Below are positions 7,805-59,131 of a DNA stretch of 62,070 nt, one piece after another. The first letter of the stretch is position 1; each line of letters opens with the position of its first letter. The stretch is from the NCBI GenBank assembly GCA_964508905.1, contig CAZDVO010000008.1, forward strand, positions 1 to 62,070. The letters are read 5' to 3'. The notes below the pieces were generated by a model, which searched no databases, had not been told where the DNA came from, and was given only the letters and a program-made list of their open reading frames with translations. The stretch comes from an uncultured bacterium (GTDB lineage: Bacteria; Omnitrophota; Omnitrophia; Omnitrophales; Aquincolibacteriaceae). The position numbers and the translations under genes are program-made.

Positions 7805-8334
7805 ATGAAAACTCAGGAACGTCAGCTGGCGAAGATCGCGGGGGCCATCTTTTGGGTCCGCCGGGCAAGGGTTATGCTCGATGTCGATCTCGCGGGTTTG
7901 TATGGGGTTGAGACTAAATATCTGAAGCGTCAGGTGAACCGCAACAGAGAGCGATTTCCCTCAGACTTTATGTTTACGCTTACGAGAAAAGAAGTGATCG
8001 GTATAAGGTGCCAAATTGGCACCTTAGACAAATGGGGACGCGGGCAACATTCCAAGTATCTTCCTTATGCTTTTACCGAGCATGGAATACTCATGCTCTC
8101 AAGTGTTCTTAACAGCTCCCGGGCCGTTCAAACCAATATTGCGATCATGCGGGCTTTTCTGCGGCTACGCGAGATGCTTTCCACGGATCGTGAACTGGCG
8201 CACAAATTTTGGAGCTCGAGCGGAAAGTAGCGGATCATGATGACGCTCTTCGAAAGATCCTGATCGCCATCCGGGAGATGTTAAGTCCTTCTGTGAAAAC
8301 GAGACCGAAAGGGCCGATAGGATTCCATCCTTAA
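7805..8334 (+). pseudogene. ORF6N-domain DNA-binding protein with a frameshift at T4 8207-8210 (or a sequencing indel)
   Basis: ORF6N motifs VMLDVDLAGLYGVETK, RNRERFPSDFMFTL and PYAFTEHG. The typical C-terminus LELERKVADHDD...KGPIGFHP* continues in the -1 frame from 8209 to the stop at 8332-8334. Confidence 0.85.
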
Positions 8335-44599: not shown

Positions 44600-46092
44600 T
44601 CTCCCAGGATGACCGTCTTAGTTTTGAAAAGAGCAAGCCCGGACGCCGTGCCGTCCGTTTGCCTGAGTCGCGTTTCTTTTCATCGCCCCCCCCACGGAGC
44701 GTTCCGCCGGGGCTTTTGCGCCAGACTTCGCTCGGATTTCCTGAGCTGAGCGAGCCGGATATCGTTCGCCATTTTATCAACCTTTCCAGGAAGAACTATT
44801 CAGTCGATACCCATTTCTATCCGCTTGGCAGCTGTACGATGAAATACAATCCCAAGGTCAATGAATGGGCCGCGCGCCAGGACAAGTTCACGGCGCTCCA
44901 TCCGTTCCAGAAGGACGCAACGGCTCAGGGGATGATCGAGATCCTATGGGAACTCGAAGAAGGTTTGAAAGAGATCACCGGGATGGACCGGTTTACGCTG
45001 CAGCCCGCGGCGGGGGCTCATGGCGAGCTGACCGGGATGATGTTGGTGAGGGCCTATCACGCTTCCCGCGGCGATCGTCAACGTACCAAGGTGCTGGTTC
45101 CCGATTCCAGCCACGGGACGAATCCCGCGAGCGCGGCGCTTTTGGGCTTCCATGTAGTGGAGGTCAAATCGGACAGCCATGGCCGCGTGGATATGGCCGA
45201 TCTTAAGCAGCATCTTGATGCACAGGTTGCGTGTCTCATGTTGACGAACCCGAACACGCTGGGCCTTTTTGATACGAATATCCTTGAGATCGCCAAGCTT
45301 GTGCACGCGCAGGGAGGTCTTCTCTATTACGACGGCGCGAACCTGAACCCGCTGCTTGGGATAGCCCGCCCGGGGGATATGGGCTTTGATATCATCCATG
45401 TGAATTTGCATAAGACGTTCTCGACCCCTCACGGCGGCGGCGGGCCCGGCTCGGGTCCTGTCGGCGTTAAAAAACACCTGGCGGAATTTCTCCCGGGCCC
45501 CCTTGTCCAAAAGACCTCAAAAGGGTTCGGCTGGGCGGCTCAGGGGGCGAGATCCATCGGGCGCGTGAAATTGTTCCATGGCAATGTCGGGGTCATGATC
45601 CGCGCGTACGTTTACCTCAAGATCCTCGGTAAGGAAGGCCTTCGGAAAGTGAGCGAGGCTGCGATCTTGAATGCGAATTACATGAAGGAAAAGTTGAAGG
45701 ATGTCTATAAGGTCGCGACGGAAGGGCCGTGTATGCACGAGTTCGTTTTGTCGCTGAAACCTTTCGCGGTCCACGGGGTCCACGCCGGCGATGTTGGGAA
45801 GCGTCTCTTGGATTACGGTTTTCATGCCCCGACCGTCCATTTTCCGTTGGTCGTTCCCGAGGCTCTGATGATCGAGCCGACGGAGACCGAAGCGAGTGAA
45901 ACGATGGACCAATTCATTGAAGTCATGAAGACGATCGCTCAAGAGATCTTGACGGACCCTGAGTTGGTGAAGACCGCGCCGCATACGTTGCCGGTGCGTC
46001 GTCCGAATGATGTGCTTGCCGCGCGTAAACCGATCCTGTCCTATCGGGATCAATTGCGCGAGAAAGTTCTGCTGGCTGAAGCCACCGCATGA
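44593..46092 (+). CDS. gcvPB: Glycine dehydrogenase subunit 2
   Basis: PLGSCTMKYNP, QPAAGAHGE, SHGTNPAS, YYDGAN, NLHKTFSTPHGGGGPG and EPTETE motifs. Confidence 0.96.
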   Translation: MLISQDDRLSFEKSKPGRRAVRLPESRFFSSPPPRSVPPGLLRQTSLGFPELSEPDIVRHFINLSRKNYSVDTHFYPLGSCTMKYNPKVNEWAARQDKFTALHPFQKDATAQGMIEILWELEEGLKEITGMDRFTLQPAAGAHGELTGMMLVRAYHASRGDRQRTKVLVPDSSHGTNPASAALLGFHVVEVKSDSHGRVDMADLKQHLDAQVACLMLTNPNTLGLFDTNILEIAKLVHAQGGLLYYDGANLNPLLGIARPGDMGFDIIHVNLHKTFSTPHGGGGPGSGPVGVKKHLAEFLPGPLVQKTSKGFGWAAQGARSIGRVKLFHGNVGVMIRAYVYLKILGKEGLRKVSEAAILNANYMKEKLKDVYKVATEGPCMHEFVLSLKPFAVHGVHAGDVGKRLLDYGFHAPTVHFPLVVPEALMIEPTETEASETMDQFIEVMKTIAQEILTDPELVKTAPHTLPVRRPNDVLAARKPILSYRDQLREKVLLAEATA

Positions 46093-46781
46093 ACTGGAGG
46101 CTGTTGCCGACGATCAGTGCGCCGATGCCGCTCCAAATGGCGCTTGATGAGACCCTGTTCCTAGCCCACAAACAAATCCCCCAGGAAGCCCAGCTGCGTT
46201 TTTACGTTTCACAAGGGCCCTGGATCAGTGTGGGGTATTCCTTTTGTGGCGACGAAGAACTTTCAAAGTCGGAGCTGGTGCGCCAGAATCCCGGGGTGCC
46301 TCTCTGCCGGCGCGTGACGGGCGGAGGATGCGTGCTCCACGGGGACGATCTGATCTTTTCGCTTGTGGCGCACTATGACGTTGAGCCGATGCGTACCGCG
46401 TTGGGTGCTGTGAAGGCGAGTTACGCCAAGATCCACGAAGCGGTTCGTGTGGGGCTTCAGTCGTGTGGCCTTGATCCGAGGTTCTATCAAGCCGAAGAGG
46501 GGCTTCCCAAAGGAAGCGACTGTTTTGATTTTCCCGTCGAAAGCGACCTTTCCTGGAGAGGCGTTAAGATCGCCGGAGGGGCTCAGAAACGTTCCGAGGG
46601 AGTGTTGCTGCACCATGAATCGATCGCGCTGCCGAAGGGTGTTGGAAGGGAACAGCTGATCGCGGCGATAACTCGCGGTATGGAAACGGTTTTCGGTATA
46701 ACCTTTGCCAAGACGGATCTTGATCCTGAAATTTATTTCCAAGCGGCAAATAAAGGACTACAGCCGATAGCCTATAGCTGA
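46089..46781 (+). CDS. Lipoate-protein ligase / octanoyltransferase (LipM/LplA-like)
   Basis: QMALDE, RRVTGGGCVLH, KIAGGAQKR motifs; follows the gcv genes. Confidence 0.88.
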   Translation: MNWRLLPTISAPMPLQMALDETLFLAHKQIPQEAQLRFYVSQGPWISVGYSFCGDEELSKSELVRQNPGVPLCRRVTGGGCVLHGDDLIFSLVAHYDVEPMRTALGAVKASYAKIHEAVRVGLQSCGLDPRFYQAEEGLPKGSDCFDFPVESDLSWRGVKIAGGAQKRSEGVLLHHESIALPKGVGREQLIAAITRGMETVFGITFAKTDLDPEIYFQAANKGLQPIAYS

Positions 46782-46838
46782 TAGCTAAAGCGGAAGCTGT
46801 GATTTTTTTCGCTAGAGGCTATTAGCCATGAGCTTTAG
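46758..46838. repeat. Heptamer-arm palindrome, family A (NNATAGC / GCTATNN)
   Basis: Left arm CTACAGC CGATAGC CTATAGC TGATAGC (46758-46785); right arm GCTAGAG GCTATTA GCCATGA GCTTTAG (46811-46838). Confidence 0.7.
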
Positions 46839-46850
46839 TCTGGTGAAACC

Positions 46851-47225
46851 ATGGAAGAATCCGGTAATTATCTTAAAAAGCTCAGCGACCTTGTCGCACG
46901 GGACCCGAGATATAAGCTTGAGGCCTATACATTCGTACTCGCGGCGCTTCACGACACCGTGACGAAACTGGAGAAACCCCGGCACGTCACGGGCCAGGAA
47001 TTGGCCTGGGGGATGCGCCGCTACGCGCTCGATCAATTCGGTCCCATGGCGAAAACCGTTCTCCAGCACTGGGGGATCCGCCAGACCCTGGATCTGGGAA
47101 AGATCGTCTTTGCCCTGATCGACGTGAAGCTGTTGAGCAAGCAGGATCAGGACAAGCTTGAGGATTTTGATAAGGTCTACGAATTTGAAAAATCTTTCTC
47201 TGAATACACGATCAGTGATGAATAA
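46851..47225 (+). CDS. Minf_1886-family (Planctomycete/Verrucomicrobia-restricted) conserved hypothetical protein
   Basis: DPRY..EAY.FV..AL, RHVTGQEL, FGPMA.TVL.HWGI and DLGKIVF.L motifs. Confidence 0.85.
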   Translation: MEESGNYLKKLSDLVARDPRYKLEAYTFVLAALHDTVTKLEKPRHVTGQELAWGMRRYALDQFGPMAKTVLQHWGIRQTLDLGKIVFALIDVKLLSKQDQDKLEDFDKVYEFEKSFSEYTISDE

Positions 47226-47229
47226 ATCG

Positions 47230-47291
47230 GGCAATGCTCAACGGTCAACGCGCAACGAAGCGCTCATTTGCGTTGTGCGTTGCGCGTTGCG
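47230..47291. repeat. Heptamer-arm palindrome, family B (NNCAACG / CGTTGNN)
   Basis: Left arm GGCAATG CTCAACG GTCAACG CGCAACG (47230-47257); right arm CATTTG CGTTGTG CGTTGCG CGTTGCG (47265-47291). Confidence 0.75.
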
Positions 47292-47306
47292 CTTGGAGTG
47301 AGAAAT

Positions 47307-49454
47307 ATGGCTCAAGACCTTCTCGCCGGCCTGAACCCGGCACAAAAGGAAGCCGTGACCTGGTCCCCGGTCCGTCCGTTGCTGATCCTGGCCGGCGCGG
47401 GGAGTGGCAAGACGCGCATCCTCACGCACCGGATCGCGTGGCTGATCGAACACGGAGTGCCCGCTTTTAACATCCTCGGGGTCACCTTCACCAATAAGGC
47501 CGCAGCCGAAATGCGGAACCGTATTGAGCGGCTCGTTTCACAGCGCGTCTGGGTGAGCACCTTCCACTCCACGTGTCTTCGTATCTTGCGCCAGGATGGT
47601 CCCGCGATGGATCTCGACAGGAATTTCATTATCTACGACGAGTACGACCAGCTCCAGGTCATCAAGGAATGTATCGCGGAGCTCAAATTGAGCGAGAAGG
47701 ATGTTAACCCCAAGGCGGTTCGGGAAGAGATCCAGAGGTCGAAAGATTTTCTGATCATGCCGGACCAGTATGCCGCCAAGGCGATGGAGCTTTTTCAGGA
47801 TCGCGTCGGAAAAGTCTATAAGCTGTATGAGAGTAAGATGCTGCGGCTTAAGGCTTGCGACTTTGGCGATCTGATCATGAAGACCGTACTTCTTTTTGAC
47901 CGGCATCCCGAGGTTCTGAGATCATGGCAGGATCGCTTTCAGCATGTCCTGATCGACGAATACCAGGACACGAACCACGCTCAATACCGGCTTGTGAAGT
48001 GCCTGGCCGCGGCCCGTCGCCAGATCACCGTGGTCGGCGACCCGGACCAGTCGATCTATGCCTGGCGCGGGGCCGATATCAAGAATATCCTGAACTTTGA
48101 GGCGGATTATCCCGACGCCGGGGCGATTCGCATGGAGCAGAACTACCGGTCGACGCCGGTGATCCTGAATGCGGCCAATCATCTGATCAAGAATAATCAA
48201 ATGCGTCGTCCCAAGGCCCTTTGGACCGAACAAAAGGGCGGGGCGAAGATCGAGCTCTACAATGCCGAAGACGAGATCTCTGAGGCGAAGTATGTGGTCG
48301 GGACCATCTTGAAGAATAGGGCTATGGGAAGGACTTTCGCCGAGCAGGTCGTTTTTTACAGGGTTCACGCGCAGTCGCGCGTGATGGAAGAGGAACTGAT
48401 GCGTTCGAATATCCCGTACAAGATCGTGGGCGGGACGCGTTTTTATGACCGCAAGGAGATCAAGGACATTATCGCGTACCTAAGGATCGTGGCCTACCCG
48501 CACGATGAGGTGAGCCTGAAGCGTGTCATCAATGTGCCGCCGCGAGGGATCGGCAAGAAAGCGCTCGAGACGCTTGATGGCGCAACGCGAAAAAGCCAGG
48601 ATGACGGAGGGCGGATGGCGGATGACGTAAAAGTCGAAGCTCCATCCTCCAGCCTCCATCCTCCACCCGGAACGTGGGATTCTGTGCTGTCCAATGTCGA
48701 GACGATCGAGGGGCTCACGCCGCGCGTCAAAAAGAGCCTTTCTGCGTTCTACGCCTGGCTGACGAAGCTTCGCCGGAAACAGCATGAAATGACGATTCAC
48801 GAGATCCTTGAAAGGATCCTGGAAGATACCGGTTACGTGACGGCGCTTGAGTCGGAGCGGACGCCCGAGGCGCAGGCCCGGCTTGAGAATATCGAGGAAT
48901 TCTACAGCGTGATCGAGAATTTTAATGAAAAGCTGGATGGAGGATGGAGGATGGAGGATGGCGATAAGCCAGGGACTGCGTCCTCCGCCCTCCACCCTCC
49001 GCCATCCGTTCTTATGGCGTTCCTGGATTCGATCGAGCTGGTGACCGATCTGGATGCGTGGGACCAGGGAACGAACGTGCTGACACTGATGACGCTCCAC
49101 ACCGCCAAAGGTTTGGAGTTCCCGATCGTTTATATGGTGGGGTTGGAAGAGGGGATCTTCCCGCATGTGAATTCCTTCGCAGGTTCTTCTGATGAGATCG
49201 AGGAAGAGCGGCGTCTGGCTTATGTGGGCATCACGCGGGCTCGCGAACGGCTCCATTTTTCCTACGCGACCGAACGGCGCATGTATGGCGCCACACATCA
49301 TAATCTTCCGTCCCGGTTCTTGACGGAGATCCCGTCCAACCTTTTGGACGCGCGTGTGTCCTTTTCCCGCAACAGTTTTCGCGATGAAGATGAGAACCAG
49401 GACCGCTACGGCTCCGTTCACGATCCCGATCCTCTCATCGAATTCGACGACTGA
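47307..49454 (+). CDS. pcrA: SF1 DNA helicase PcrA/UvrD (start ATG 47307)
   Basis: LNPAQ, AGAGSGKT, TFTNKAA, DEYQDTN, VGDPDQSIY, EQNYRS, MTLHTAKGLEF and EERRLAYVGITRA motifs; GGAG RBS at 47295. Confidence 0.96.
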   Translation: MAQDLLAGLNPAQKEAVTWSPVRPLLILAGAGSGKTRILTHRIAWLIEHGVPAFNILGVTFTNKAAAEMRNRIERLVSQRVWVSTFHSTCLRILRQDGPAMDLDRNFIIYDEYDQLQVIKECIAELKLSEKDVNPKAVREEIQRSKDFLIMPDQYAAKAMELFQDRVGKVYKLYESKMLRLKACDFGDLIMKTVLLFDRHPEVLRSWQDRFQHVLIDEYQDTNHAQYRLVKCLAAARRQITVVGDPDQSIYAWRGADIKNILNFEADYPDAGAIRMEQNYRSTPVILNAANHLIKNNQMRRPKALWTEQKGGAKIELYNAEDEISEAKYVVGTILKNRAMGRTFAEQVVFYRVHAQSRVMEEELMRSNIPYKIVGGTRFYDRKEIKDIIAYLRIVAYPHDEVSLKRVINVPPRGIGKKALETLDGATRKSQDDGGRMADDVKVEAPSSSLHPPPGTWDSVLSNVETIEGLTPRVKKSLSAFYAWLTKLRRKQHEMTIHEILERILEDTGYVTALESERTPEAQARLENIEEFYSVIENFNEKLDGGWRMEDGDKPGTASSALHPPPSVLMAFLDSIELVTDLDAWDQGTNVLTLMTLHTAKGLEFPIVYMVGLEEGIFPHVNSFAGSSDEIEEERRLAYVGITRARERLHFSYATERRMYGATHHNLPSRFLTEIPSNLLDARVSFSRNSFRDEDENQDRYGSVHDPDPLIEFDD
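48599..48668 (+). repeat. Heptamer-arm palindrome, family C (GGATGGA / TCCATCC), in frame inside pcrA
   Basis: GGATGAC GGAGGGC GGATGGC GGATGAC, 14-nt spacer, TCCATCC TCCAGCC TCCATCC TCCACCC. Confidence 0.8.
48935..49007 (+). repeat. Heptamer-arm palindrome, family C, second in-frame copy inside pcrA
   Basis: GGATGGA x3 GGATGGC (48935-48962), spacer, TCCTCCGCCCTCCACCCTCCGCCATCC (48981-49007). Confidence 0.82.
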
Positions 49455-49629
49455 TCGGCCTTTTTCGTTCCTTTCTCGCGGCCCCGCCCGTTCTGTCCCG
49501 TTCTTGAAATGGAACAGTATTTCCAAGGATCGATCGACTTCTACTTCATAATTCTTCAAAATAATCCCCCGATAGCTATATCTCTTTTGAAATGAATGGG
49601 TTACGAACCAAGCTGTTTTTGCCGTAGGC

Positions 49630-49658
49630 TTGAAATATATTAGAACTTAATGTATCTT
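49630..49658 (+). promoter_or_regulatory. Sigma70-type promoter of the giant-protein gene, in an AT-rich intergenic tract
   Basis: TTGAAA (49630-49635), 17-nt spacer, TATCTT (49653-49658). Confidence 0.5.
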
Positions 49659-49711
49659 TTTAATAAGGAGAGATAAATAAAATCATATATAACTGTAAAA
49701 CATAGCAATCT

Positions 49712-52700
49712 ATGACAAACACAGCTAAAAAAATCATAAGCTTGGTGGTGCTCGTCTGCTTTGCGATGACGCAAACGGTGTCCGCAAATCCCGGGGCGAG
49801 TATTGAGATCGCGACGCGTTATGAAACGCCCTCGTTCCTCCAGATCGATATCCCGGCAGAACTCGCGACGCTTGACGGGCTTTTTGAAGCGCCTCCGCGC
49901 CCTGATCCGCGTCTGGTGCTTCATGTTCAGAACGCGCACGCGAATTACGGCGCGCAGATGAAGATCAAAGAGCTGCTCCAATACCTGCACAAGACGTATG
50001 GTTTCAAAACGATCTTCGTCGAAGGCGCTTCCGAAGACCTGAATCCCGATTACCTCCGCATGTTCCCGGACAGGGAACGGAACATGAAACTCGCCGACTT
50101 TCTCATGCAACAGGGGGAATTGACGGGCGCGGAACTTTTCATCCTGGAGCAGGATGGCGGAGGGCGGAGGGCGGAGGGCGCAAAAAATCAGGATGACCGG
50201 GGGGAGAAAGCTGATGGCGTATATGCCGAGACCCCATCCTCCATCCTCCATCCTCTATCCGAGCCCAGTGTTCGGGCTCACGGGATCGAAAATGCGGAGC
50301 TCTATCGCGAGAACTACGACGCGCTCAAAAAAGTTTTCGGTTCGGGAAAGACCGTTACGCGTTATCTCGGAGGCTATGAGTCGCGGCTCGATGGCTTGGC
50401 CTCCAAAGTTTTTTCGCCGGAACTCCGTAAACTCCTGGGCGATTGGAAAAAATTCGAAAAAGGACAGCGCGAATTCATGCCCTATGTTCACGCGCTCACG
50501 GGGAATGCCAAAAAGATCCTGGGCGTTGACCTTGAGAGTTTGCTCGCGCAGGTCGAATGGCCGCAGATCTCGCGTCTTTTGCAGCTTCAGGTGATGGAAA
50601 AGGAACTTCAGACCGAGAAGGCTCTCGCTGAGAAAGATAAGCTGATCACGTTCCTGACGGCGAAACGGGTGACGCCGGAGCTGCTGGCGGCCATCAAGGA
50701 TTTTCAGGGGCAGCGGGTGAGCGTGCTCCGCGGGAAGTCGGATGCCGTTCCGGCCGGCCTGCAACCCCGGGACCTAATGGAAAAACTGGTCCTTGAAGCC
50801 GGCCCGAAGGGATTCCGCTTTCAGGATTATCCGGCATTTAGTATCTACGCGGGGTATCTCATCCTCAAGAACGAACTTGATCCGAAGCGGCTTTTTGAGG
50901 AGATCCGCACTGTCTTTGCCCGTATGTTGGATACCCTAGCCAAGACGCCTCGCCAGCGGGAACTTCTTGCGATCTATCGTGACGAAGAACTTGTTCGTAA
51001 ATTGCTCAACCTTGAACTGCCGCGCCGGGAATGGCGCGAGGCGGTGGCGAAACAGCAGGAGTTGGGAATGGATGTGATGGTCGAGCGGCTGAAGACGATC
51101 GGCGCACTCGTTAGCAAAGAATCCAATCTGCCGCTTTCCAGTTTTGAGACGAAAAAAGTGAGCGAGGCGTTCCGCCAGGAAGTTATGGGGATCCAAGCCG
51201 CCGCGTTCGGGTTCTACGATGCCGCACGGCGTCGTGAAGATGTGTTCTACCAGAAGATCGAGGAAGTGATGACCCGCAACGCGGAGTCGAAGGCCGTGCT
51301 CGTCACCGGCGGTTTTCACACGGACGGCATCACCGATCTTCTTCGTGAGCATCAGGTGAGCTATGGGATCCTCACCCCGCGCCTTCTCGAAAAATCCGAC
51401 GAGAATCTCTATCGCTCCGTCATGTTGCAGAACAAACAAAGCACGTTTGAACTGTCTTATCTGGAGGCTGTTTCGCGATTGCAGGGATATCTCGCCCAAG
51501 GGGGGCAAGTCGGGGAGGTGGAGGTGGTGGCTAGTTTGGAGGCCGTGCTTCGAGCGATCGGTCACGCCGGCGATTTGGGGAATATTGCGGACGCCATCAA
51601 GATCTTCAATGAGTCCTCTTACGCGATCAATGGGAAAATCCAGATCGATCCGAATCCGATCAGCAATGATGAAAAGGGCCGTCCCGTCTACCAAGTCCTC
51701 CATCGGTCGGAAGCGAGACGTGATGATCTCCACGGTGTAGCGATGCCCTGGTATTCCCACGCGGTTGAGACGGGCATGCGTCTTTCCGGTAATCTTTTTT
51801 TTGATCGGGGTGTGGGGATGATGAATGATCTTTTAAGACGAACGGATCTGACGCCGGAGATCCTGGAACGGGCTTTTTGGGGGTGGCATCAGGTCATGGA
51901 TGTGGCTCAAGGACAGAAAGATATTTATCGTGTTCAACCGGAAGCGATTCAGCAGCTTTTTGCGAAAGTCCTGTTCGATGCATCCCAGCCGGTGACTCGT
52001 GAAAATGTGTATGAGAAAGTGGCGGAGCTTTACTATGAATTGCACCGGATGCAGCCTTTTGTTGAAGGCAACCACCGTGCGATAAGCCTGCTCGTGAACT
52101 TTGTCTTTCTGAAGGTTGGGGTTCCGGCCTTTTATCTGAACCAGCGGAATACTCCGAATTACGACGAGATGCGAAAGCTGATCCGTCTGCCAGTCCAGAC
52201 ACGACGGAATGCTGACTGGGGGAAGGTGTCGAGCGATCGTTTAAGAGCGGCATTCAAAAATGCCGGGATGGAACTTCCCGTGAGGCCGGTTCGAGAGACG
52301 TCGGCTTTGAACGATGATAATCTCAAGAAGGTCATAGCCTCCTTCTTTATGATCGAAGCTGCAACGATCCGCTCGGAATCGCGGACGGGGGAGGTCTTAA
52401 CGGAGTCGCGTGTGCAATCCGCCGCGGACTCGTTGGAACTCCAAATAGAGGCGGTTCGTCGCGAAAACGTAGGTAAGCCGACTTGGATGAGAGCCCCCAA
52501 TAGTAGCGTCACGAATCTCAGCGAGCGTCATTGGCTTTTAGTGCGCACCCCTCAATTTAAGAGCTTTTTCGGTGACTGGGAGCATGACCCCCAAAATGCT
52601 TCCAAGGTTTTAGATGAAAATGGAGAGCCGCTCTTAGTCTGGCACGGCTCGCAAGCGGCGGCGGCATTCGATGCGTTTGACCCCGAAGCAAAACGCATTA

Positions 52701-55700
52701 CAGATATCGGAGATCTCGGATGGGGCAGTTATTTTACGGGCTCTCGCGAAACGGCGGAAGTTTTTACCTGGCGGCTCAACGCCACACAAGGACCGTTGGT
52801 GAGTGCGTTTTTAAACATTCGAAATCCTGCGAGCGTTGAGACGGTCCAGAAGAATGGCGGGAATGGTAAGAGCCGTACTCCAGAAGCGGCGAAGTCGCTG
52901 GTCCAGACACTTACAAATTTGGGACATGACGGCGCCTTTCGCACACCCTTGGAAGTGGTGTTCGGCAAGCCAGTTACCGAATGGGTGGTCTATGACAATG
53001 CCAATATTTTTATGGTCTCACCCGATGTTCTTTCAGAAGAGACTCCCACTATCGACCGTCAGAATGTTCCCGCTCGTGTGGAGATGCGGACGATCGAGCA
53101 GACAAAGTTATCCCTCGATGGAGGGACGCTGCAGGTTCCTTCCATTGCTCCTGGGGCCGGGATTCAGATGGTCGTCGGGAAAGATGCTGAGTTCCAGAAA
53201 GCCCGCTTGGAATCGCGGCAAAAGACGGTTTCGAAGCGTGAGAAGCTCCTGCAAACGGTGGCGGTTGCGGGTTTCTTTGCGTTCTGGGCTGGTTTCCCCG
53301 ATCTTTCCCTGGCGCGTGAGAAGACGGCCTATGTTCCCTATGTCGCCCGACAAGAAAAAGCTCCATCCGAACCCTCTCGCGTGGCCCCGGGGGTAGAGCT
53401 GTTGGATTTCACGAAGTTGTGGGCCGCTGTCATGTCACAAGGTGTTTTGCGAGGGGTTACCGAGGAAGATCTTAGACAGTCGATTGACTATTCAAACCGT
53501 CCAGATATCCGTGCGCAGGTTCAAGCCGCTTATGCGATGCTTATTCGTGATGGATTGCTGCCGGAAGGGACCAAGTTTCCTGTGGTTTTACTCAAAGGGA
53601 TTGATGAATCCCTTTTTAGCAAGCTTGGCATATCGGCGGATAGCTTTGCTGTTGCCCCGAGGGGAAGTGGCGTTGTCTTTGTCCCCCGGGTTGCTTGGGA
53701 TCGACTGGATCCCGATGTGTCAAAAGCAGCCTGGCTCTTGGTGAAGGCCGGGCATGAGGCGCGGCACCATATGGATCTTCTTAATGATCCGAACATCTCT
53801 ACGCTGCGTACGGAAGCCAACGCGTACGCGGTTACGGCTCGCTCGATGGAGTTGGCGGGTTATCCGGAGGAGCAATTGATCTTGCAGAGACAGGTGGCAT
53901 CGGCGTTCAAAGTCTTGGCGGATAGCGAAGAGGCGGTCTCGCGGATCTTTGGAAAAGGAACCCTTTTTCGAAATATTAATTACGGAAATATAGCCGTCGA
54001 CGGAAGTGGCTTTGTCCGTGTTGAGCTTTTGGATGAGGTTAACGGAAAGAAAATAATGATCGGCGTCGATCTTAACGCTCCGTTGGGCAAGCAGATATTC
54101 GAGCTTGTTGCAAAACCGGCAGAACAATCATCAAATGCAGAGACTCAGACTCATGCGGTCTATGCCTCTCGAGAGAGTCTTGGAGGAGTGCTTACTCCGC
54201 TGACGGATATTCCCTCAAGTATGGTTTTGGCCGTTCTGGGGCTTATGGCCGCCGTTCCTCGTCGGGGGACGCGCGCCGGTCAAACAAGTGCCGCGCCCTC
54301 TAAATCGCAGGAGACGAAAAAGAAGTTGGCGGCCGTGCGATCCGAGTCGAGGGCCCAGGCTGCTGCGGAGGGGGAGGAGCTTACGTTGGATCAGGTCCGC
54401 AAGGAGTTTGCGGCGACCTTCAGGCACGAATTCGCGGATGATTTGACGGTACTTGCCGGTTTGCCCCAGTTGTTAATTCAGCCGGAGCTTTTTCCCGAGG
54501 CCCGTCGCACAAGCATAGATCTTGGGCGCAAGTCTCTTAAAGCTCTTCGCGCACAGGTGGAGCGACTCCGCCAGGAACAGGGTGAGAATTTTGTGCGAGC
54601 GCCTAACCATGGGGCTACCGACGGGTCCTTTTTGCTGGTGGATTCCCACACGCAAAGTTATGGGAACAACTATCATCAGCTGAGCCAACAGTGGCACCAG
54701 TATGCCCGCATGGAAGTTCTAGCTCTTGTGAACCATAAGCAGTTAGCGGCCAATTTAGAGATGGTTATTGATAAAGCCGAGGAGTGGTTGAATAAGGTGG
54801 CGGCGAAGCTTGCTCAAGGTGAAAAACTTGCCGATGCTGATCTGAAGGATGGGGACGATTTCGGGGAAACGTTCCTTTATGTACTTGATCAGCTGGGGCG
54901 AGGGGAATTCGAGTCCTGGGTCGGCGAGCCCCAGAGTGAGGGCGGTTCGCTGCAGGTGAACGAGGTCGGGACGCCTGCGCTACCGATGGTGTCGGAAAAC
55001 CATGGCTACTGGGTTGATGCGATCACGAATCTGGCGAGGCAGTACGGGCGGACTTTGAGAAGGCGGACTTTGAGCGAGGAGCGTCTGACGGTCGTGGAGA
55101 TCCCGGGCAGGGACCGTTATTTACCTGGAGCGTTCCATTTGTTGAATGCCGAAGGAAAGGTCATCGGTGTCAGCCTAGTGGAAGATATCATTTTCCGGGC
55201 CGTTGATCCTAAAACGGGTGAGCCGATTGATGACGAGGTGATCAAACGAGCTGATGGTGAATCCATGAGAGATGAGCTGAATGCCACCTGGGCGCTCGAG
55301 GAAGCCTGGGCGCTCAAGGAAGCCGACAAATATGGGTATCTGCGCGCGTGGGAAGCGGGTGTGATGGCGAATGGACAAGGTTTTTGGGCGCGGCTCAAAG
55401 GCCCGAAAAAAGGCCAAGATCTTAGCCAGGCAAATCCACGGCTTTCGGTCATAGATCTTTTTAAAGGCTTAGCTGGCGCGGGCGAGAGGTTTGTCCAACT
55501 ACATCAAGCAGGCCTTATCCATGGAGATATTAAGCCCGGGAACATTCTTCTTGGGGAAGATCCGAAAGGAGCCCTAGACGTTTCAAATTCATACGTGATC
55601 GATCTCACAGGGGTTCAGCAATTGGGGGCTAACCCGGACGCGGAAACAGTGTTGGGAACGACGTGGATGAACCCCCTTATAAAAATGGAGGGACGTCCGG

Positions 55701-57460
55701 TGTTGCTGCAAGGGTGGTTGCGGACCCAAGAGGCTGATAACTTTCAATTTGCTATGACGATCGTGAGTCTCCTTCACCAGAAAGCGCGTCTTCCCGGGGC
55801 GAATGCCCTTTCGCCGGACGAGGCTGCTCGTTTGGAGACGAAATACCTTGGACGGATCTTTACCCGCTTTCCCGGCCAGAGTGCTCGCCGTATGTTCATT
55901 CAAAATAAAGACATGGAAAATTTTGCCTATGATATTTATTTTCAACATCCCGAGATATTTGGCGTCAGACCGATGTCTGAGATCCCCACGATGGCCCAAC
56001 TGACCCAAATGCTCAAGGAAGATCTTGCCGCGATGGAGGCCTCGGCGGCGGGGCGCTCCGAATCCCGTGCGGAAACGCGGACGGAGGGAACGACGGCGGA
56101 GGATTTTGACGAATTTGTTCAGGGGTATTGGCGGGAGAATGATTTGGGCAGTGAGGAGGATCGCTTGGCTGCCGCGAAGTTCTATTATTCGAGCGATTCG
56201 GGCAGGGCGATTCAAAAGGGAGGCATCACGGCTTCGATGTTTTCTGTATTTATAAGGGCCATGGGATTCAGAGGAAAGGACAGCGCAGCCAAGACTTTCG
56301 CAGCCATGAGTGCGCTTCGGAAACTTCGGCCTCTCTATCCTGAGGTGAAATTGTCGACAGCCATCGACATGCTTTCCAAGGGCGAATTTGATTTTAATAA
56401 ACTTGGGAATAGTGGCGAGGTTGCGCTTGCAAGCTTTCTGCCAGCGGTCAGGACTATTTTTTTGAGGAACGGGATCAAGGCGCAGGTTCTGAAAGTTGGT
56501 GTTGATGCGGCGGCCAAGGCAGCAGAAACCAAGACTGCCGCTGAGCTGGAGGCGGAATTTGTTGAAGCGATGCAGGCTCGAATGCCGGCGGCGGAGACGG
56601 CGATCGATCTCAGAAGTGTTCTAAAGGAACTTTCGTCTGAGGAACAAAAGTCTCTGGAATTCAAAGTGGCTGAGGTGAGGAACCGCTTGGGATTGGCAGA
56701 AGTATCGGATGAGGTGGTTCGTGTGGCGCTTTTGGTGGGTGGGATCCTGGATCTGAGCAAAGCGGATTTGCCTGAAGCTAAACGGCGGATGATGCTTCTG
56801 GCGGCCACGATCGGCGGGCAGGCGACGGTGGCTTTACGAGATGCCTTCAAGAAAGCTTATGAAGGTCAGAATATTCAATTGCCTGTGAGCGATGCGGTGG
56901 GGTTGGTGGTGGATATCCTTGATGCGATGCCCTCGTCCAAGAAGGTCGAGGCGGTGAAGGGGATGCTGGCCTTGAATCCGAACGCGCATTTTGCCTGGAT
57001 CGTTCCTGCCGGGGTGGATGTGTCGGAAACGGTTCAGAAGATTACCGAATGGGGGAACCGTAATGATGTGAAAGTTGAGGGGCGCCTTCTTGTGAGCGGG
57101 GTCGGAGCCAGTCTTGCGAACAGCATCAACAGCGTGAAAAAGAGGATCAAACGTATCTACGCGTTTGTTGTTATCGGGCGCTCGGAAGATCTGGCTGACC
57201 TGAATGTGGAACAGGCGGAACTGATTGAGCGGGGGAACGAGATCCCTCAAGACGTTGCGGATGTGGCGGGGATAGTGGTGTCCGTCGAGCGGTCCCAGGA
57301 ACTTGTCTATGGGGGCGAGAAATTTGGTGAGAAAACCGCTCAGGCCATCAATGCGAAAAAAGGGAAACGTTTTTCTTTCAACCTTAACGGACTTCTCAAT
57401 ATTGCCAAGAGCCTCGCAGCCCAACTTCAGGGCCTCCTGAGCCTCGAAAAATCCGCTTAG
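49712..57460 (+). CDS. Giant (2582 aa) secreted multidomain protein: TIKI/ChaN-like N-terminal domain, Fic, polyvalent-type ART, HExxH peptidase, Ser/Thr kinase and an unknown C-terminal module
   Basis: Single open frame; Sec-type signal (KKIISLVVLVCFAMTQTVSA); motifs QNAH/VEG/TGGFH, QPFVEGNHR, VLDENGEPLLVWHG/GSYFT, HEARH..E and HGDIKPGN. Confidence 0.9.
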   Translation: MTNTAKKIISLVVLVCFAMTQTVSANPGASIEIATRYETPSFLQIDIPAELATLDGLFEAPPRPDPRLVLHVQNAHANYGAQMKIKELLQYLHKTYGFKTIFVEGASEDLNPDYLRMFPDRERNMKLADFLMQQGELTGAELFILEQDGGGRRAEGAKNQDDRGEKADGVYAETPSSILHPLSEPSVRAHGIENAELYRENYDALKKVFGSGKTVTRYLGGYESRLDGLASKVFSPELRKLLGDWKKFEKGQREFMPYVHALTGNAKKILGVDLESLLAQVEWPQISRLLQLQVMEKELQTEKALAEKDKLITFLTAKRVTPELLAAIKDFQGQRVSVLRGKSDAVPAGLQPRDLMEKLVLEAGPKGFRFQDYPAFSIYAGYLILKNELDPKRLFEEIRTVFARMLDTLAKTPRQRELLAIYRDEELVRKLLNLELPRREWREAVAKQQELGMDVMVERLKTIGALVSKESNLPLSSFETKKVSEAFRQEVMGIQAAAFGFYDAARRREDVFYQKIEEVMTRNAESKAVLVTGGFHTDGITDLLREHQVSYGILTPRLLEKSDENLYRSVMLQNKQSTFELSYLEAVSRLQGYLAQGGQVGEVEVVASLEAVLRAIGHAGDLGNIADAIKIFNESSYAINGKIQIDPNPISNDEKGRPVYQVLHRSEARRDDLHGVAMPWYSHAVETGMRLSGNLFFDRGVGMMNDLLRRTDLTPEILERAFWGWHQVMDVAQGQKDIYRVQPEAIQQLFAKVLFDASQPVTRENVYEKVAELYYELHRMQPFVEGNHRAISLLVNFVFLKVGVPAFYLNQRNTPNYDEMRKLIRLPVQTRRNADWGKVSSDRLRAAFKNAGMELPVRPVRETSALNDDNLKKVIASFFMIEAATIRSESRTGEVLTESRVQSAADSLELQIEAVRRENVGKPTWMRAPNSSVTNLSERHWLLVRTPQFKSFFGDWEHDPQNASKVLDENGEPLLVWHGSQAAAAFDAFDPEAKRITDIGDLGWGSYFTGSRETAEVFTWRLNATQGPLVSAFLNIRNPASVETVQKNGGNGKSRTPEAAKSLVQTLTNLGHDGAFRTPLEVVFGKPVTEWVVYDNANIFMVSPDVLSEETPTIDRQNVPARVEMRTIEQTKLSLDGGTLQVPSIAPGAGIQMVVGKDAEFQKARLESRQKTVSKREKLLQTVAVAGFFAFWAGFPDLSLAREKTAYVPYVARQEKAPSEPSRVAPGVELLDFTKLWAAVMSQGVLRGVTEEDLRQSIDYSNRPDIRAQVQAAYAMLIRDGLLPEGTKFPVVLLKGIDESLFSKLGISADSFAVAPRGSGVVFVPRVAWDRLDPDVSKAAWLLVKAGHEARHHMDLLNDPNISTLRTEANAYAVTARSMELAGYPEEQLILQRQVASAFKVLADSEEAVSRIFGKGTLFRNINYGNIAVDGSGFVRVELLDEVNGKKIMIGVDLNAPLGKQIFELVAKPAEQSSNAETQTHAVYASRESLGGVLTPLTDIPSSMVLAVLGLMAAVPRRGTRAGQTSAAPSKSQETKKKLAAVRSESRAQAAAEGEELTLDQVRKEFAATFRHEFADDLTVLAGLPQLLIQPELFPEARRTSIDLGRKSLKALRAQVERLRQEQGENFVRAPNHGATDGSFLLVDSHTQSYGNNYHQLSQQWHQYARMEVLALVNHKQLAANLEMVIDKAEEWLNKVAAKLAQGEKLADADLKDGDDFGETFLYVLDQLGRGEFESWVGEPQSEGGSLQVNEVGTPALPMVSENHGYWVDAITNLARQYGRTLRRRTLSEERLTVVEIPGRDRYLPGAFHLLNAEGKVIGVSLVEDIIFRAVDPKTGEPIDDEVIKRADGESMRDELNATWALEEAWALKEADKYGYLRAWEAGVMANGQGFWARLKGPKKGQDLSQANPRLSVIDLFKGLAGAGERFVQLHQAGLIHGDIKPGNILLGEDPKGALDVSNSYVIDLTGVQQLGANPDAETVLGTTWMNPLIKMEGRPVLLQGWLRTQEADNFQFAMTIVSLLHQKARLPGANALSPDEAARLETKYLGRIFTRFPGQSARRMFIQNKDMENFAYDIYFQHPEIFGVRPMSEIPTMAQLTQMLKEDLAAMEASAAGRSESRAETRTEGTTAEDFDEFVQGYWRENDLGSEEDRLAAAKFYYSSDSGRAIQKGGITASMFSVFIRAMGFRGKDSAAKTFAAMSALRKLRPLYPEVKLSTAIDMLSKGEFDFNKLGNSGEVALASFLPAVRTIFLRNGIKAQVLKVGVDAAAKAAETKTAAELEAEFVEAMQARMPAAETAIDLRSVLKELSSEEQKSLEFKVAEVRNRLGLAEVSDEVVRVALLVGGILDLSKADLPEAKRRMMLLAATIGGQATVALRDAFKKAYEGQNIQLPVSDAVGLVVDILDAMPSSKKVEAVKGMLALNPNAHFAWIVPAGVDVSETVQKITEWGNRNDVKVEGRLLVSGVGASLANSINSVKKRIKRIYAFVVIGRSEDLADLNVEQAELIERGNEIPQDVADVAGIVVSVERSQELVYGGEKFGEKTAQAINAKKGKRFSFNLNGLLNIAKSLAAQLQGLLSLEKSA
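50152..50260 (+). repeat. Heptamer-arm palindrome, family C, in frame inside the giant-protein gene
   Basis: GGATGGC GGAGGGC x3 (50152-50179), 54-nt spacer, CCATCCT x3 CTATCC (50234-50260). Confidence 0.82.
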
Positions 57461-57481
57461 TCATTATCCCGGCACACTTTG

Positions 57482-57510
57482 TGGACTTTTGATTACTTGC
57501 CCGCTAAAAT
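57482..57510 (+). promoter_or_regulatory. Sigma70-type promoter of plsC, predicted leaderless transcript
   Basis: TGGACT (57482-57487), 17-nt spacer, TAAAAT (57505-57510), then 6 nt to ATG 57517; no Shine-Dalgarno. Confidence 0.55.
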
Positions 57511-57516
57511 GCCCGC

Positions 57517-58311
57517 ATGAAGATCCTCAAAGAGCGCGTGTTCAGTCCCGGAGAAAGTCTTTTTTATTCCACCGTCTTGTGGGCCGCGACGGTTTTCCTC
57601 ACTCTTTTTTCCGCTTGTCTTGATCTTTTCGTGGTGTATCCGATCTCGCTGATCGTGGATCGTAAGGCTCGGAGGCTTTTGCACACGGTTTCCGCCGATT
57701 GGGGAAGAACCATTATTCGGTGGAGTTCGATCTGGCGGCTTGTGGTGACGGGGAAGGAGCATCTTGAAAAGGGGAAGCACTACATCGTGATCGCCAATCA
57801 TCAGAGCATGCTGGATATCCTCGCCGTTTGCGCCGGGGTCCCCATTAATTTTAAGTTTCTCGCCAAGCGCGAGCTCTTTCAGATCCCGTTCATGGGATGG
57901 GCCATGGCCGCTGCCGGTTACATTCCCGTGGACCGCGCGAGCCATAAAAGCGGGCGCGAAGCGATGCACCGCATTACCCGGGTTCTGGATAAAGGGGTGA
58001 GCGTGCTCCTTTTCCCGGAGGGGACGCGAAGCCCCGACGGTAAGATCCATGCCTTTAAGATGGGCGCTTTCAAATTGGCACGCGATAATAAAGTGGAGAT
58101 CCTTCCGGTGGTGGTGGACGGAACGGGACAGGCGCTTCCCAAGAGATCCTGGCTGATCAAAAAGAAAAGCGCGTTCATCGTTTCGATCGGGAAGCCGGTC
58201 TCGCTCGATGATTTTGCTGATGCCTCGATGGAAGAGGCGAAAGAGAAGATTCGCCACGAAATGATCGGGCGATTGGAACATATCCGCCACGGCAAGTGTG
58301 AGGCCGCGTGA
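57517..58311 (+). CDS. plsC: 1-acyl-sn-glycerol-3-phosphate acyltransferase
   Basis: ANHQSMLD, KFLAKREL, FPEGTRS, FKMGAF and ILPVVV motifs. Confidence 0.9.
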   Translation: MKILKERVFSPGESLFYSTVLWAATVFLTLFSACLDLFVVYPISLIVDRKARRLLHTVSADWGRTIIRWSSIWRLVVTGKEHLEKGKHYIVIANHQSMLDILAVCAGVPINFKFLAKRELFQIPFMGWAMAAAGYIPVDRASHKSGREAMHRITRVLDKGVSVLLFPEGTRSPDGKIHAFKMGAFKLARDNKVEILPVVVDGTGQALPKRSWLIKKKSAFIVSIGKPVSLDDFADASMEEAKEKIRHEMIGRLEHIRHGKCEAA

Positions 58312-59045
58312 AGATACTGACATTAAATACGTGGCAAGAGCGCGGGCCCTGGCGCGAACGTTGGGAACTCATCCTGAAGGGCCTCCGAGAGTACGATGCT
58401 GATATCGTTGCTTTTCAGGAAGTGTTCAATATGGACTGGGCTGAAGAAGTCCACCGCCGAAGCGGGTACCCCTACCTGGCTGTGAGCGGGGAACACTCAG
58501 GGCTTATTTTTCTTTCAAAATTCAAACCGGTCGAGCAGGAATGCTTGGTGATGGAGACGCGGTCGCCGACCGAGGATTATCATCGGTATGCTTTTTATCT
58601 CCGGGTGGATGTCGAGGGTCAGGACGTCGCGCTGTTTAATACGCATCTTTCATGGAAGGCGGGCGAGAATGAAGTGCGGATGAAGCAGACGCTTGAACTG
58701 GAAGCTTTTGCTACCCGGAAAGCCTCCACGCTTCCGGTGGCATTGATGGGAGACTTGAACGGCGCGTCGAATACGCCGCCGGTCGTGTATCTCCGGGAAA
58801 TACGGAAATGGATCGACACGTTCTGGGTGAAGAATCCCGGCGTGCCTGGGTTGACCTGGGACTATCGGAATCCCTACGCGGAAGCAGAGCGGGATAAAAT
58901 GGCGGAACGGCGCATCGATTATATTTTTATTCGAGAGAGGACGGGCCCCTTGGAGGCGATCAGGTCTTCGCGCGTTGTTTTTGACCAGCCCTCCGCTGCG
59001 GGGGTCTTTCCGTCGGATCATTTTGGGGTGCTTACCGAATTTTAA
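58308..59045 (+). CDS. Endonuclease/exonuclease/phosphatase-family protein
   Basis: LTLNTW, DIVAFQEV, NTHLS, MGDLN, RIDYIF and SDHFGV motifs. Confidence 0.92.
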   Translation: MKILTLNTWQERGPWRERWELILKGLREYDADIVAFQEVFNMDWAEEVHRRSGYPYLAVSGEHSGLIFLSKFKPVEQECLVMETRSPTEDYHRYAFYLRVDVEGQDVALFNTHLSWKAGENEVRMKQTLELEAFATRKASTLPVALMGDLNGASNTPPVVYLREIRKWIDTFWVKNPGVPGLTWDYRNPYAEAERDKMAERRIDYIFIRERTGPLEAIRSSRVVFDQPSAAGVFPSDHFGVLTEF

Positions 59046-59048
59046 TAG

Positions 59049-59115
59049 CGCAACGCACAACGCGCAAAGTTTAACGCAACGCTTTTCCGTCGAGCGTTGC
59101 CCGTTGCGCATTGAG
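59049..59115. repeat. Heptamer-arm palindrome, family B, second copy
   Basis: Left arm CGCAACG CACAACG CGCAAAG TTTAACG (59049-59076); right arm CGTCGAG CGTTGCC CGTTGCG CATTGAG (59088-59115). Confidence 0.75.
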
Positions 59116-59131
59116 CTGGAAAATGGATAAC

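Follow-up and report, generated by a model that had tools for sequence, protein, structure and literature searches.

In a 62,070-nt housekeeping stretch of a Candidatus Omnitrophota genome (in the following the window), we analysed six palindromic elements that share one architecture: an arm of 3-5 tandem imperfect heptamers, a loop and matching heptamers in inverted orientation. The palindromes are probably miniature, gene-less members of one class of selfish insertion elements, a reading to which we assign a probability of roughly 0.7. In its full-length form such an element would span ~400-700 bp and comprise 4-5 heptamers, a gene of ~120 aa for a four-helix-bundle protein (FHB; TIGR02436/PF05635, "S23p", Avd-like) and the same heptamers inverted. 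The intervening sequences (IVSs) of 23S rRNA genes would be the classical, historically noticed special case of this class. Since the heptamer differs by element lineage and changes with the FHB protein, three unrelated sequences can share one geometry. Full-length and gene-less forms with the same arms were found at one orthologous junction of two relatives (L087 and L081), and copies were found nested in the loops of older copies. Taking the palindromes as gene-less derivatives accounts for their shared geometry, their clustering at tolerated sites, their turnover between relatives and the different units found inside and between genes. Insertions would be tolerated at operon junctions, in two PcrA loops, in giant proteins and inside the loops of older copies.

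Six palindromes with heptameric arms

A first-pass annotation of the window had described six palindromes of one architecture with unrelated unit sequences, with variable spacers and with five of the six lying within 3.5 kb. All six are present at the positions reported there, and spacers (~7 to ~50 nt) and clustering are as described. All coordinates refer to the forward (+) strand of the window. Three elements fill operon junctions, where they span from the stop codon to the start codon. Element 1 (ATAGC type, 46755..46842) occupies the lipB|orf124 junction. Its left arm (46758-46788; CTACAGC CGATAGC CTATAGC TGATAGC) contains the lipB stop codon (46779-81), its loop has a run of seven T, and its right arm (~46812-46841; GCTAGAG GCTATTA GCCATGA GCTTTAG) is degenerate. 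Element 2 (CAACG type, 47232..47298) fills the orf124|pcrA junction with the left arm CAATGCT CAACGGT CAACGCG CAACGAA and the right arm GCGTTGT GCGTTGC GCGTTGC; the Shine-Dalgarno-like GGAG before the pcrA ATG (47307) comes from its outer right arm. Element 3 (CAACG type, 59047..59116) fills the junction between the genes of an endonuclease/exonuclease/phosphatase-family protein (EEP; stop codon 59043-45) and an M48 peptidase.

The other three elements are of the GGATGG type and lie in frame within protein genes. Element 4 (48599..48669) sits at site A of pcrA and encodes DDGGRMADDVKVEAPSSSLHPPP. Element 5 (48933..49010), at pcrA site B, encodes DGGWRMEDGDKPGTASSALHPPPS; its arms read (GGATGGA)x3 plus GGATGGC on the left and GTCCTCC GCCCTCC ACCCTCC GCCATCC on the right. 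Element 6 (50150..50262) lies in a 2582-aa open reading frame (ORF) and has the left arm GGATGGC (GGAGGGC)x3, a loop of ~50 nt and the right arm (CCATCCT)x3 CTATCC. Directly 5' of element 4, at 48580..48595, a CAACG-type unit and an A-run (GCGCAACGCGAAAAAG) are left over. The remnant is that of an older copy in which element 4 is nested; at the same codons a full (GCGCAAC)x3.5 array is found in L084 and an identical remnant in L083. The inverted terminal repeats of all six elements can form a stem, and in each element the arm richer in purines lies 5'. Units of the ATAGC and GGATGG types contain the dinucleotide AG. Two junctions of the window are empty: at 46089..46092 the gcvPB stop overlaps the lipB start (ATGA), and at 58308..58311 the acyltransferase stop overlaps the start of the next gene (GTGA).

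Tandem Repeats Finder reported period-7 arrays at 46762-85, 47270-92, 48599-624/48640-65, 48935-61/48982-9008 and 50152-80/50234-60. A self-similarity scan of the window at lags 4-12 gave runs of at least 3 units at period 7 only. For quantification we used a detector that calls an array from at least 11/14 self-matches at lag 7, and a pair if a reverse-complement array lies at most 120 nt away with consensus units differing at no more than 2 positions. On the 62 kb it returned 11 arrays, all within the six elements, and 5 array/inverted-array pairs; the right arm of the element at 46758 was too degenerate for the detector and is visible by eye. Over one hundred dinucleotide-preserving shuffles the number of arrays averaged 2.2 and never exceeded 7, and no shuffle contained a pair. 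At other periods (5, 6, 8-11) the window gave 0-1 pairs, such that period 7 alone is enriched. As a natural control we scanned 77 pcrA loci from outside the Omnitrophota (1.44 Mb) and found 4 pairs, all of them trivial overlapping GC-rich matches and none real. The excess over shuffled sequence, which the annotation had proposed as a check, was thus confirmed, and the six palindromes are real and far above chance.

In most units 4-5 positions are constant and 2-3 vary, and the phase of these positions is fixed. Since the variable positions are non-complementary between the arms, the predicted stems are short helices broken at these positions. Strong selection for the hairpin itself was considered and is ruled out by z-scores of only -0.6 to -3.4 for the predicted RNA hairpins of the six elements relative to shuffles. 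The elements also do not have the layout of intrinsic terminators: their A/T runs sit in the loops, none follows a stem, and three copies lie inside ORFs.

A four-helix-bundle gene between inverted arrays

At the acyltransferase|EEP junction, which is empty in the window, the relative L081 carries a gene-less GTAAGTG hairpin, and in the relative L087 the same arms enclose an FHB gene of 129 aa. The gene lies between inverted TAAG-type arrays, with GATAAGC AGTAAGT GGTAAGG GATAAGG on the left and CCTTATC CCTTACC GCTTATC ACTTATC on the right. The L081 hairpin can be aligned with either end of the L087 element, with 37/46 nt at one end and 34/39 nt at the other. The L087 protein scores 139 bits against PF05635 ("23S rRNA-intervening sequence protein") and 132 bits against TIGR02436 ("four helix bundle protein"). 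Its match to the equivalog model NF033474 for Avd of diversity-generating retroelements (DGRs) is weak, with 46 bits at a cutoff of 80 bits. The solved homologue is Xanthomonas Xcc0516 (2GSC); five chains are present in each of the homologous entries 2GSC and 2RLD.

We surveyed 80 metagenomic loci (L091-L170) with FHB homologues of 43-100% identity, 65 of which had at least 200 nt on both sides of the gene and were tested. Period-7 arrays within 200 nt on both sides were found for 39 of the 65 genes, and in 37 of these 39 the arrays were inverted with matching units. A further 13 loci had an array on one side. Other periods (5, 6, 9 and 10) gave 0-1 cases, and at control positions shifted by 1.2-3 kb arrays on both sides occurred in 0-2 of 23-36 cases. 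The FHB gene and inverted heptamer arrays are associated, and among the candidates whose co-occurrence the annotation had suggested to examine, it is the FHB gene that is found together with the arrays. The unit of element 1 (CCGATAGCCTATAGC) also flanks FHB genes in three of the metagenomic loci (L114, L100 and L134). None of the 80 loci lies in a 23S rRNA gene, and a search of viral contigs with the FHB protein gave no match.

The palindromes might alternatively be REP/REPIN-like sequences or miniature transposable elements with inverted repeats (MITEs), moved by a RAYT or IS200-type HUH enzyme, a DDE transposase or a reverse transcriptase encoded elsewhere, with the FHB gene as cargo or accessory. 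The intergenic palindromes at operon junctions are indeed REP-like in their density of about one per 6 kb, their lack of target duplications (see below) fits the "peel and paste" transposition of HUH enzymes, and Avd homologues, to whose model the L087 protein is weakly matched, work with a reverse transcriptase in DGRs. In Geobacter, ISGme8/9 insert at a fixed distance from the paired repeat sites (PMC2700814). However, library scans found no transposase, RAYT, HUH/Y1 enzyme or reverse transcriptase among the window genes, and the gene lists of eight related 18-22-kb loci contained no transposase, RAYT or reverse transcriptase. The head tetranucleotides of REPs (GTAG/CGTC) are absent from the six element sequences, and the FHB gene is the only gene repeatedly enclosed by the arms. 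We consider a conventional enzyme to be an unlikely cause.

Arm structure, polarity and covariation with the protein

The arms were analysed in 43 full-length elements that have inverted matched arrays on both sides (flanks of at least 150 nt required) and a size of 397-693 bp (median 476 bp). Arms of 4 units (39 arms) and of 5 units (17 arms) prevail in the full-length elements, and likewise in the gene-less ones (14 and 12 arms). On the sense strand of the gene, a well conserved AG is found in 41/43 left arms, CT in 7/43. The purine fraction is 0.66 in the left and 0.36 in the right arms of the full-length elements, and the purine-richer arm comes first in 32/32 gene-less hairpins. The elements are fixed in their polarity: inward from either end, the strand read 5'->3' is the purine-rich one that contains AG. 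We also considered an orientation bias relative to transcription. This is ruled out, as the purine-first property does not change upon flipping the strand and is therefore a polarity intrinsic to the element.

Among the FHB elements the units differ from locus to locus. For FHB proteins that are at least 80% identical, all 11 pairs have units within 1 mismatch, and for pairs below 50% identity the units differ on average at 3.3 of 7 positions. The annotation had suggested a mechanism that works on geometry rather than sequence. This holds as far as the architecture is shared across different units; it does not hold for the sequence, given the AG and the polarity in 41/43 elements and units that track the FHB protein. 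These features fit recognition that is specific to each lineage better than a process blind to sequence.

The arrays could also have grown in place: slippage would amplify a 7-nt unit, hairpin-templated repair or template switching would copy it to the other arm, and the FHB gene would land between the arms incidentally. Arrays do expand, reaching 52 units in L099 and 8 perfect units in L083 (9868-10001), and Coxiella strains vary in heptamer copy number (PMC4990558). Target duplications are missing, and slippage was proposed for heptamers by Mrazek, an idea reviewed together with heptamer repeats including TAACTGA (MacGregor 2015, PMC4679880). Against this origin stand the sharp peak of the arm length at 4-5 units on both sides, the variable positions, which are non-complementary between the arms and show that the arms were not copied from each other, and the loop sequence that GGATGG copies at unrelated sites have in common. 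The fixed polarity, with the AG core in 41/43 full-length elements and the same orientation in 32/32 gene-less ones, and the 39/65 FHB genes between period-7 arrays (37 of them matched) argue against it as well. Growth in place is in our view quite improbable as the origin of the elements. It can occur after insertion: in three loci (L099 1-363, L104 3161-3343 and L147 645-715) one arm has grown to 10-50 heptamers and the other still has 4-5, and such one-sided expansion indicates that arrays of full-length elements can later grow by slippage.

Two further processes were considered. A telomerase-like addition of heptamers at both 3' ends of a double-strand break would yield polarity and symmetry automatically; it finds no support from a reverse transcriptase and leaves the enclosed FHB gene unexplained. 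DGR-like adenine mutagenesis of the variable unit positions is ruled out because the constant positions include adenines and no reverse transcriptase is nearby.

Turnover at orthologous sites

DNA from seven relatives (PcrA 77-82% identical, DNA ~75% identical) and from an outgroup (PcrA 71% identical) was compared with the window. Together, the window and six relatives contain 32 gene-less hairpins in 191 kb, i.e. ~1 per 6 kb. No hairpins were found in the outgroup (L088-90), where orthologous genes abut or overlap, nor in three more distant Omnitrophota loci. At individual junctions the occupancy changes from genome to genome. The gcvPB|lipB junction, empty in the window, holds hairpins of 85-100 nt in three relatives, of GACYAGA type in L081 and L087 and of CGACYAA type in L083. 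In L085 (8756-8996) a 240-nt gap follows gcvPB and lipB is called at only 149 aa; an insertion at this junction may have destroyed the lipB start. The EEP|M48 junction carries the CAACG type in the window, a CGTAGGT-type hairpin in L081 and a TAGGTNG type in L087. At the orf124|pcrA junction the CAACG type of the window is replaced by an AAAGANN type in L081, by eight perfect CGACTAA units in L083 and, in a further relative (P0002 contig), by a 123-aa PF05635 gene where the window has element 2.

Within pcrA we aligned 21 PcrA orthologues. They match well except for two sites that are hypervariable in length and sequence and that carry no insert in the basal members. DNA comparison places the two nests of insertions after ...GIGKKALETL... 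(site A) and after ...SVIExFxE (site B). Site A is empty in L085, L086 and L088, and in L087 it holds a GAC-type element with a second palindrome in its loop. At site B, L081 and L086 have an orthologous copy of element 5, L083 and L085 a TACGG-type array nested inside an older copy, and L088 is short or empty. The GGATGG copies at different sites have a loop motif in common (GTAAAAG..GATCTGTC, in protein K[AT]DLSPS), which identifies them as a dispersed family and not as local growths. Units that are free of stop codons in every frame were found in 12/13 genic hairpins, and units containing TAA, TAG or TGA in 17/21 intergenic ones (p = 4.5e-5). This is a selection filter: inside genes, the surviving hairpins are those with stop-free units.

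Two palindromes that lie nested in element loops, at L083 13641-13765 and L087 ~11320-11365 (pcrA site A), are reversed in polarity and begin with their pyrimidine-rich arm (CCCTCAC CTCAACC CTCTCCC ... GGGAGAG GGCAGGG TGAGGGG). They are the sole exceptions found to the purine-first rule.

These comparisons bear on whether the palindromes are host sites kept by selection, either regulatory or structural sites of a nucleoid or ribbon-helix-helix protein, or hairpins for mRNA processing or stability. Their exact fit between stop and start codons and the GGAG that pcrA receives from an outer right arm would agree with such a role, and Aklujkar et al. took the paired sites of Geobacter for binding sites of global regulators (PMC2700814). 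On the other hand, 13/34 hairpins lie within coding sequence, orthologous junctions hold unrelated units or nothing, and many unit types occur in one small genome. The stems are not followed by a T-run and their folding z-scores are weak. A host function as the reason for these elements therefore appears very improbable.

Cultured isolates with the same structure

The structure is also found in cultured bacteria. A tblastn search of 72,556 plasmids with the FHB protein matched 34 records, mostly from Nostoc, Calothrix, Trichormus and other cyanobacteria, and the FHB gene together with its arrays is present in Nostoc punctiforme, Trichormus variabilis, Picosynechococcus and Calothrix. On pNPUN02 of Nostoc punctiforme, five tandem TCAGRAG-type heptamers (mostly TCAGGAG) lie 5' of an annotated "four helix bundle protein". 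The ATG of the gene follows a few bases past the last heptamer and the inverted array overlaps the stop codon; plasmid C of Trichormus variabilis has the same layout. The first 50 kb of pNPUN02 also contain a pair of AATTCGC arrays without a gene and a TCAGGAG array that stands alone.

In Azospirillum lipoferum 4B an FHB ORF lies within the 23S rRNA gene (Rfam LSU model), and the termini of the insertion carry five inverted heptamers of CAGAGGA/CGGATGA. This insertion is a classical intervening sequence.

A different setting was seen on a plasmid of Picosynechococcus sp. PCC 7003 (NZ_CP016476.1, 126543-126899; L173), where the FHB gene lies between cas10/cmr2 and cmr3. It is co-oriented with and inside a type III-B CRISPR operon and has short inverted GGAGATA-type repeats with spacers of ~36 nt.

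Possible mechanism and points against it

How would such an element work? The arrays may serve as the binding platform of a pentameric FHB ring, with one heptamer per protomer, of which the ring would read ~5 positions and leave ~2 free. The RNA-binding protein TRAP reads spaced triplets, and the putative binding of FHB to the arrays would be similar. FHB protein made elsewhere in the genome would act in trans on gene-less copies. The purine-rich 5' arm could double as ribosome-binding site of the FHB gene. In transcripts the arms would pair; the resulting stems, imperfect in mRNA, may be tolerated or act as processing or stability sites; in rRNA the stem is, according to published work, removed by RNase III. 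Copying into hairpin loops and cassette exchange between arrays are candidate routes by which copies may arise.

A wider proposal extends this to other bacteria: S23p FHB pentamers would read tandem heptamers in a sequence-specific manner and, together with inverted arrays, form a widespread mobile class that encodes neither transposase nor reverse transcriptase. Heptanucleotide repeats known for a long time from many phyla, namely cyanobacterial STRRs, Xanthomonas GGGAATC arrays, the Geobacter sites and the rRNA IVSs, would be its gene-less progeny, and in Omnitrophota it would insert peptides into essential proteins. We regard this extension as tentative and, taken as a whole, as rather doubtful.

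Several points weigh against reading the six palindromes as gene-less derivatives of FHB elements, or against parts of the proposed mechanism. The window itself contains no FHB gene anywhere in its 62 kb (tblastn). In our sample no FHB gene is flanked by CAACG- or GGATGG-type arrays, such that a cognate partner is known for the ATAGC type only, and the AG core is absent from CAACG and TACGG units. About 40% of the FHB homologues are without detected arrays on both sides, and six of the 65 genes are flanked by inverted period-8 arrays. The comparison of L081 with L087 fits the loss of the gene from a full element as well as the gain of a gene by a hairpin. Being only ~75% identical in DNA, the relatives did not provide an insertion event with exact boundaries. 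Target duplications, which the annotation had named as a check on insertion, were not seen: of 36 full-length elements whose outer stem is clean, 26 have no flanking direct repeat, 9 have one of 1 nt and a single element has one of 2 nt, as expected by chance. The predicted RNA hairpins of the six elements have only modest extra stability over shuffles. Common descent alone could explain the covariation of protein and unit. Finally, we know of no catalytic function in the FHB family.

Gene content of the window

The window carries cysS, tmk, holB, metG, an opp transporter, mutS, mutL, a mur/ddl/fts cluster, gcvTHP and lipB, and further a Minf_1886-family ORF, pcrA, the 2582-aa ORF and the genes of the acyltransferase, the EEP protein and the M48 peptidase. 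It was assigned to Candidatus Omnitrophota by the names that its pcrA homologues bear. ARAGORN found no tRNA and Rfam no RNA family, including rRNA, in the window. The pcrA/uvrD helicase gene (Pfam), host of elements 4 and 5, extends over 47307..49454. Between elements 1 and 2 lies a 124-aa ORF (46851-47225; orf124) for a Minf_1886-family protein (TIGR04138, 145 bits). It is kept at the same position in all relatives including the array-free outgroup and is therefore a resident gene, not a part of an element.

In the 2582-aa ORF (49712-57460) an ADP-ribosyltransferase domain (ART-PolyVal) was recognised, along with a weak match to Fic. The ORF occupies a hypervariable slot 3' of pcrA: giant ORFs of 1382 to >7000 aa with other domains are found there in L083, L084 and the P0002 and P0011 contigs, and the slot is vacant in L081 and L085-L088. 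A 141-aa ORF (7805-8230) lies between a tsaE-like gene and radC in otherwise housekeeping surroundings.

Implications

Among the long simple repeats of bacteria, tandem heptanucleotides show the strongest over-representation, and cyanobacterial STRRs have been in use for fingerprinting since 1990. TIGR02436 FHB proteins are numerous, and one of them has been solved (2GSC). Heptamer repeats, the IVSs of 23S rRNA and the TIGR02436 proteins may share one explanation. The link between FHB genes and arrays may in particular account for the abundance of heptamer repeats in bacteria, and it makes the questions around all three experimentally testable. The elements would further provide a route for in-frame peptide insertions into essential proteins such as PcrA and into giant surface-type proteins. 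For annotators it is of use to know that the hairpins shift stop codons, explain hypervariable loops in alignments of orthologues and may be taken for regulatory sites. Should the association turn out to be already known or circumstantial, the window elements would still be a clean case of a REP-like repeat class from an uncultivated phylum.

Comparison with known systems

REPs are short palindromes that fill operon junctions in high copy and have a rare full-length partner gene. The window elements differ from REPs and their BIME-REPIN arrangements by the missing GTAG/CGTC head and by the absence of an HUH/RAYT gene from the window and the related loci. The FHB partner also differs from the RAYT of REPs in having no known catalytic motif. 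Rickettsia palindromic elements (RPEs) are palindromic insertions that are tolerated in frame in essential genes. Unlike RPEs, which are conserved sequences of 100-150 bp without heptamer periodicity, the window elements have this periodicity. MITEs of DDE-transposase insertion sequences are not matched, since a target-site duplication of fixed length is missing. Neither are DGRs, since the Avd score is below the cutoff, no reverse transcriptase is present and the variable unit positions differ from adenine positions.

Cyanobacterial STRRs are heptanucleotide repeats reportedly described by Mazel in 1990. They resemble the elements studied here in their tandem 7-nt units, which in the window elements likewise occur above chance, and they are abundant in the very taxa that lead the FHB plasmid matches (Nostoc, Calothrix, Trichormus). 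They differ in that most descriptions are of direct arrays, which vary in length and lack an inverted partner.

Among the closest systems in the literature are the IVSs of 23S rRNA that carry S23p, known from Leptospira, Coxiella burnetii, Brucella and Xanthomonas (Warrier et al. 2016, PMC4990558). The Coxiella IVS is 428 nt long, has a 28-bp terminal stem that is cut by RNase III, and contains an S23p ORF; the start codon of S23p is preceded by 2-3 GACAGAT heptamers, which belong to the inverted termini and vary in number between strains (PMC4990558). Common to the IVSs and the elements studied here are terminal inverted repeats that form a long stem and tandem heptamers just before the ORF. 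The full-length elements additionally share with the IVSs the PF05635 ORF, an overall length of ~430-480 bp and the view that they are selfish. In contrast to IVSs, which sit in 23S helices 25/45, the window copies lie in mRNA junctions and in frame within protein genes, have no ORF, and several unit types co-exist. RNase III excision rescues the fragmented rRNA of an IVS, and no such rescue is possible for mRNA. With loops of 7-50 nt and without an FHB ORF, the window copies are thus classed as gene-less derivatives and not as full members of the S23p/IVS type.

In Xanthomonas, GGGAATC arrays occur ~185 times per genome, mostly with four units and with 70-75 convergent pairs (Rehm et al. 2015, PMC4692102). 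The four-unit arrays, the close opposite-strand pairs and the purine-rich strand directed inward resemble the window elements, and the same genus encodes the solved FHB protein Xcc0516 (2GSC). The Xanthomonas arrays differ in having one unit type, in being mostly intergenic, in being described as G-quadruplex motifs and in not having been linked to a protein gene. Geobacter metallireducens has 49 inter- and intragenic elements of 4x GGACCGG (Aklujkar et al. 2009, PMC2700814) and tandem-repeat sites in opposite-strand pairs that fall into three classes, one of them MTYCTGA x5 (PMC2700814). As in the window, several unit classes occur in one genome, mostly paired at variable distance and partly intragenic. 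In reverse complement the class 3 unit (MTYCTGA) gives TCAGRAK, the unit found on the flanks of Nostoc FHB genes, and class 2 (TCTCCGTS[Y]) has units of 8-9 nt, to be compared with the period-8 arrays at six FHB genes. These sites differ from our elements in their reading as IHF/HU-type "global regulator binding sites", with no associated gene noted.

The first-pass annotation could name no comparable described family; with the repeats of Xanthomonas (PMC4692102) and Geobacter metallireducens (PMC2700814) and the Coxiella IVS (PMC4990558), comparable families have been described. We found no paper in the open-access literature on a general link between heptamer repeats and PF05635/TIGR02436 genes, which may be described elsewhere; this general link appears not to have been drawn before. 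The kind of element to which the window copies belong is known, and they are new in being gene-less, in using several units, in lying partly in frame and in occurring in Omnitrophota.

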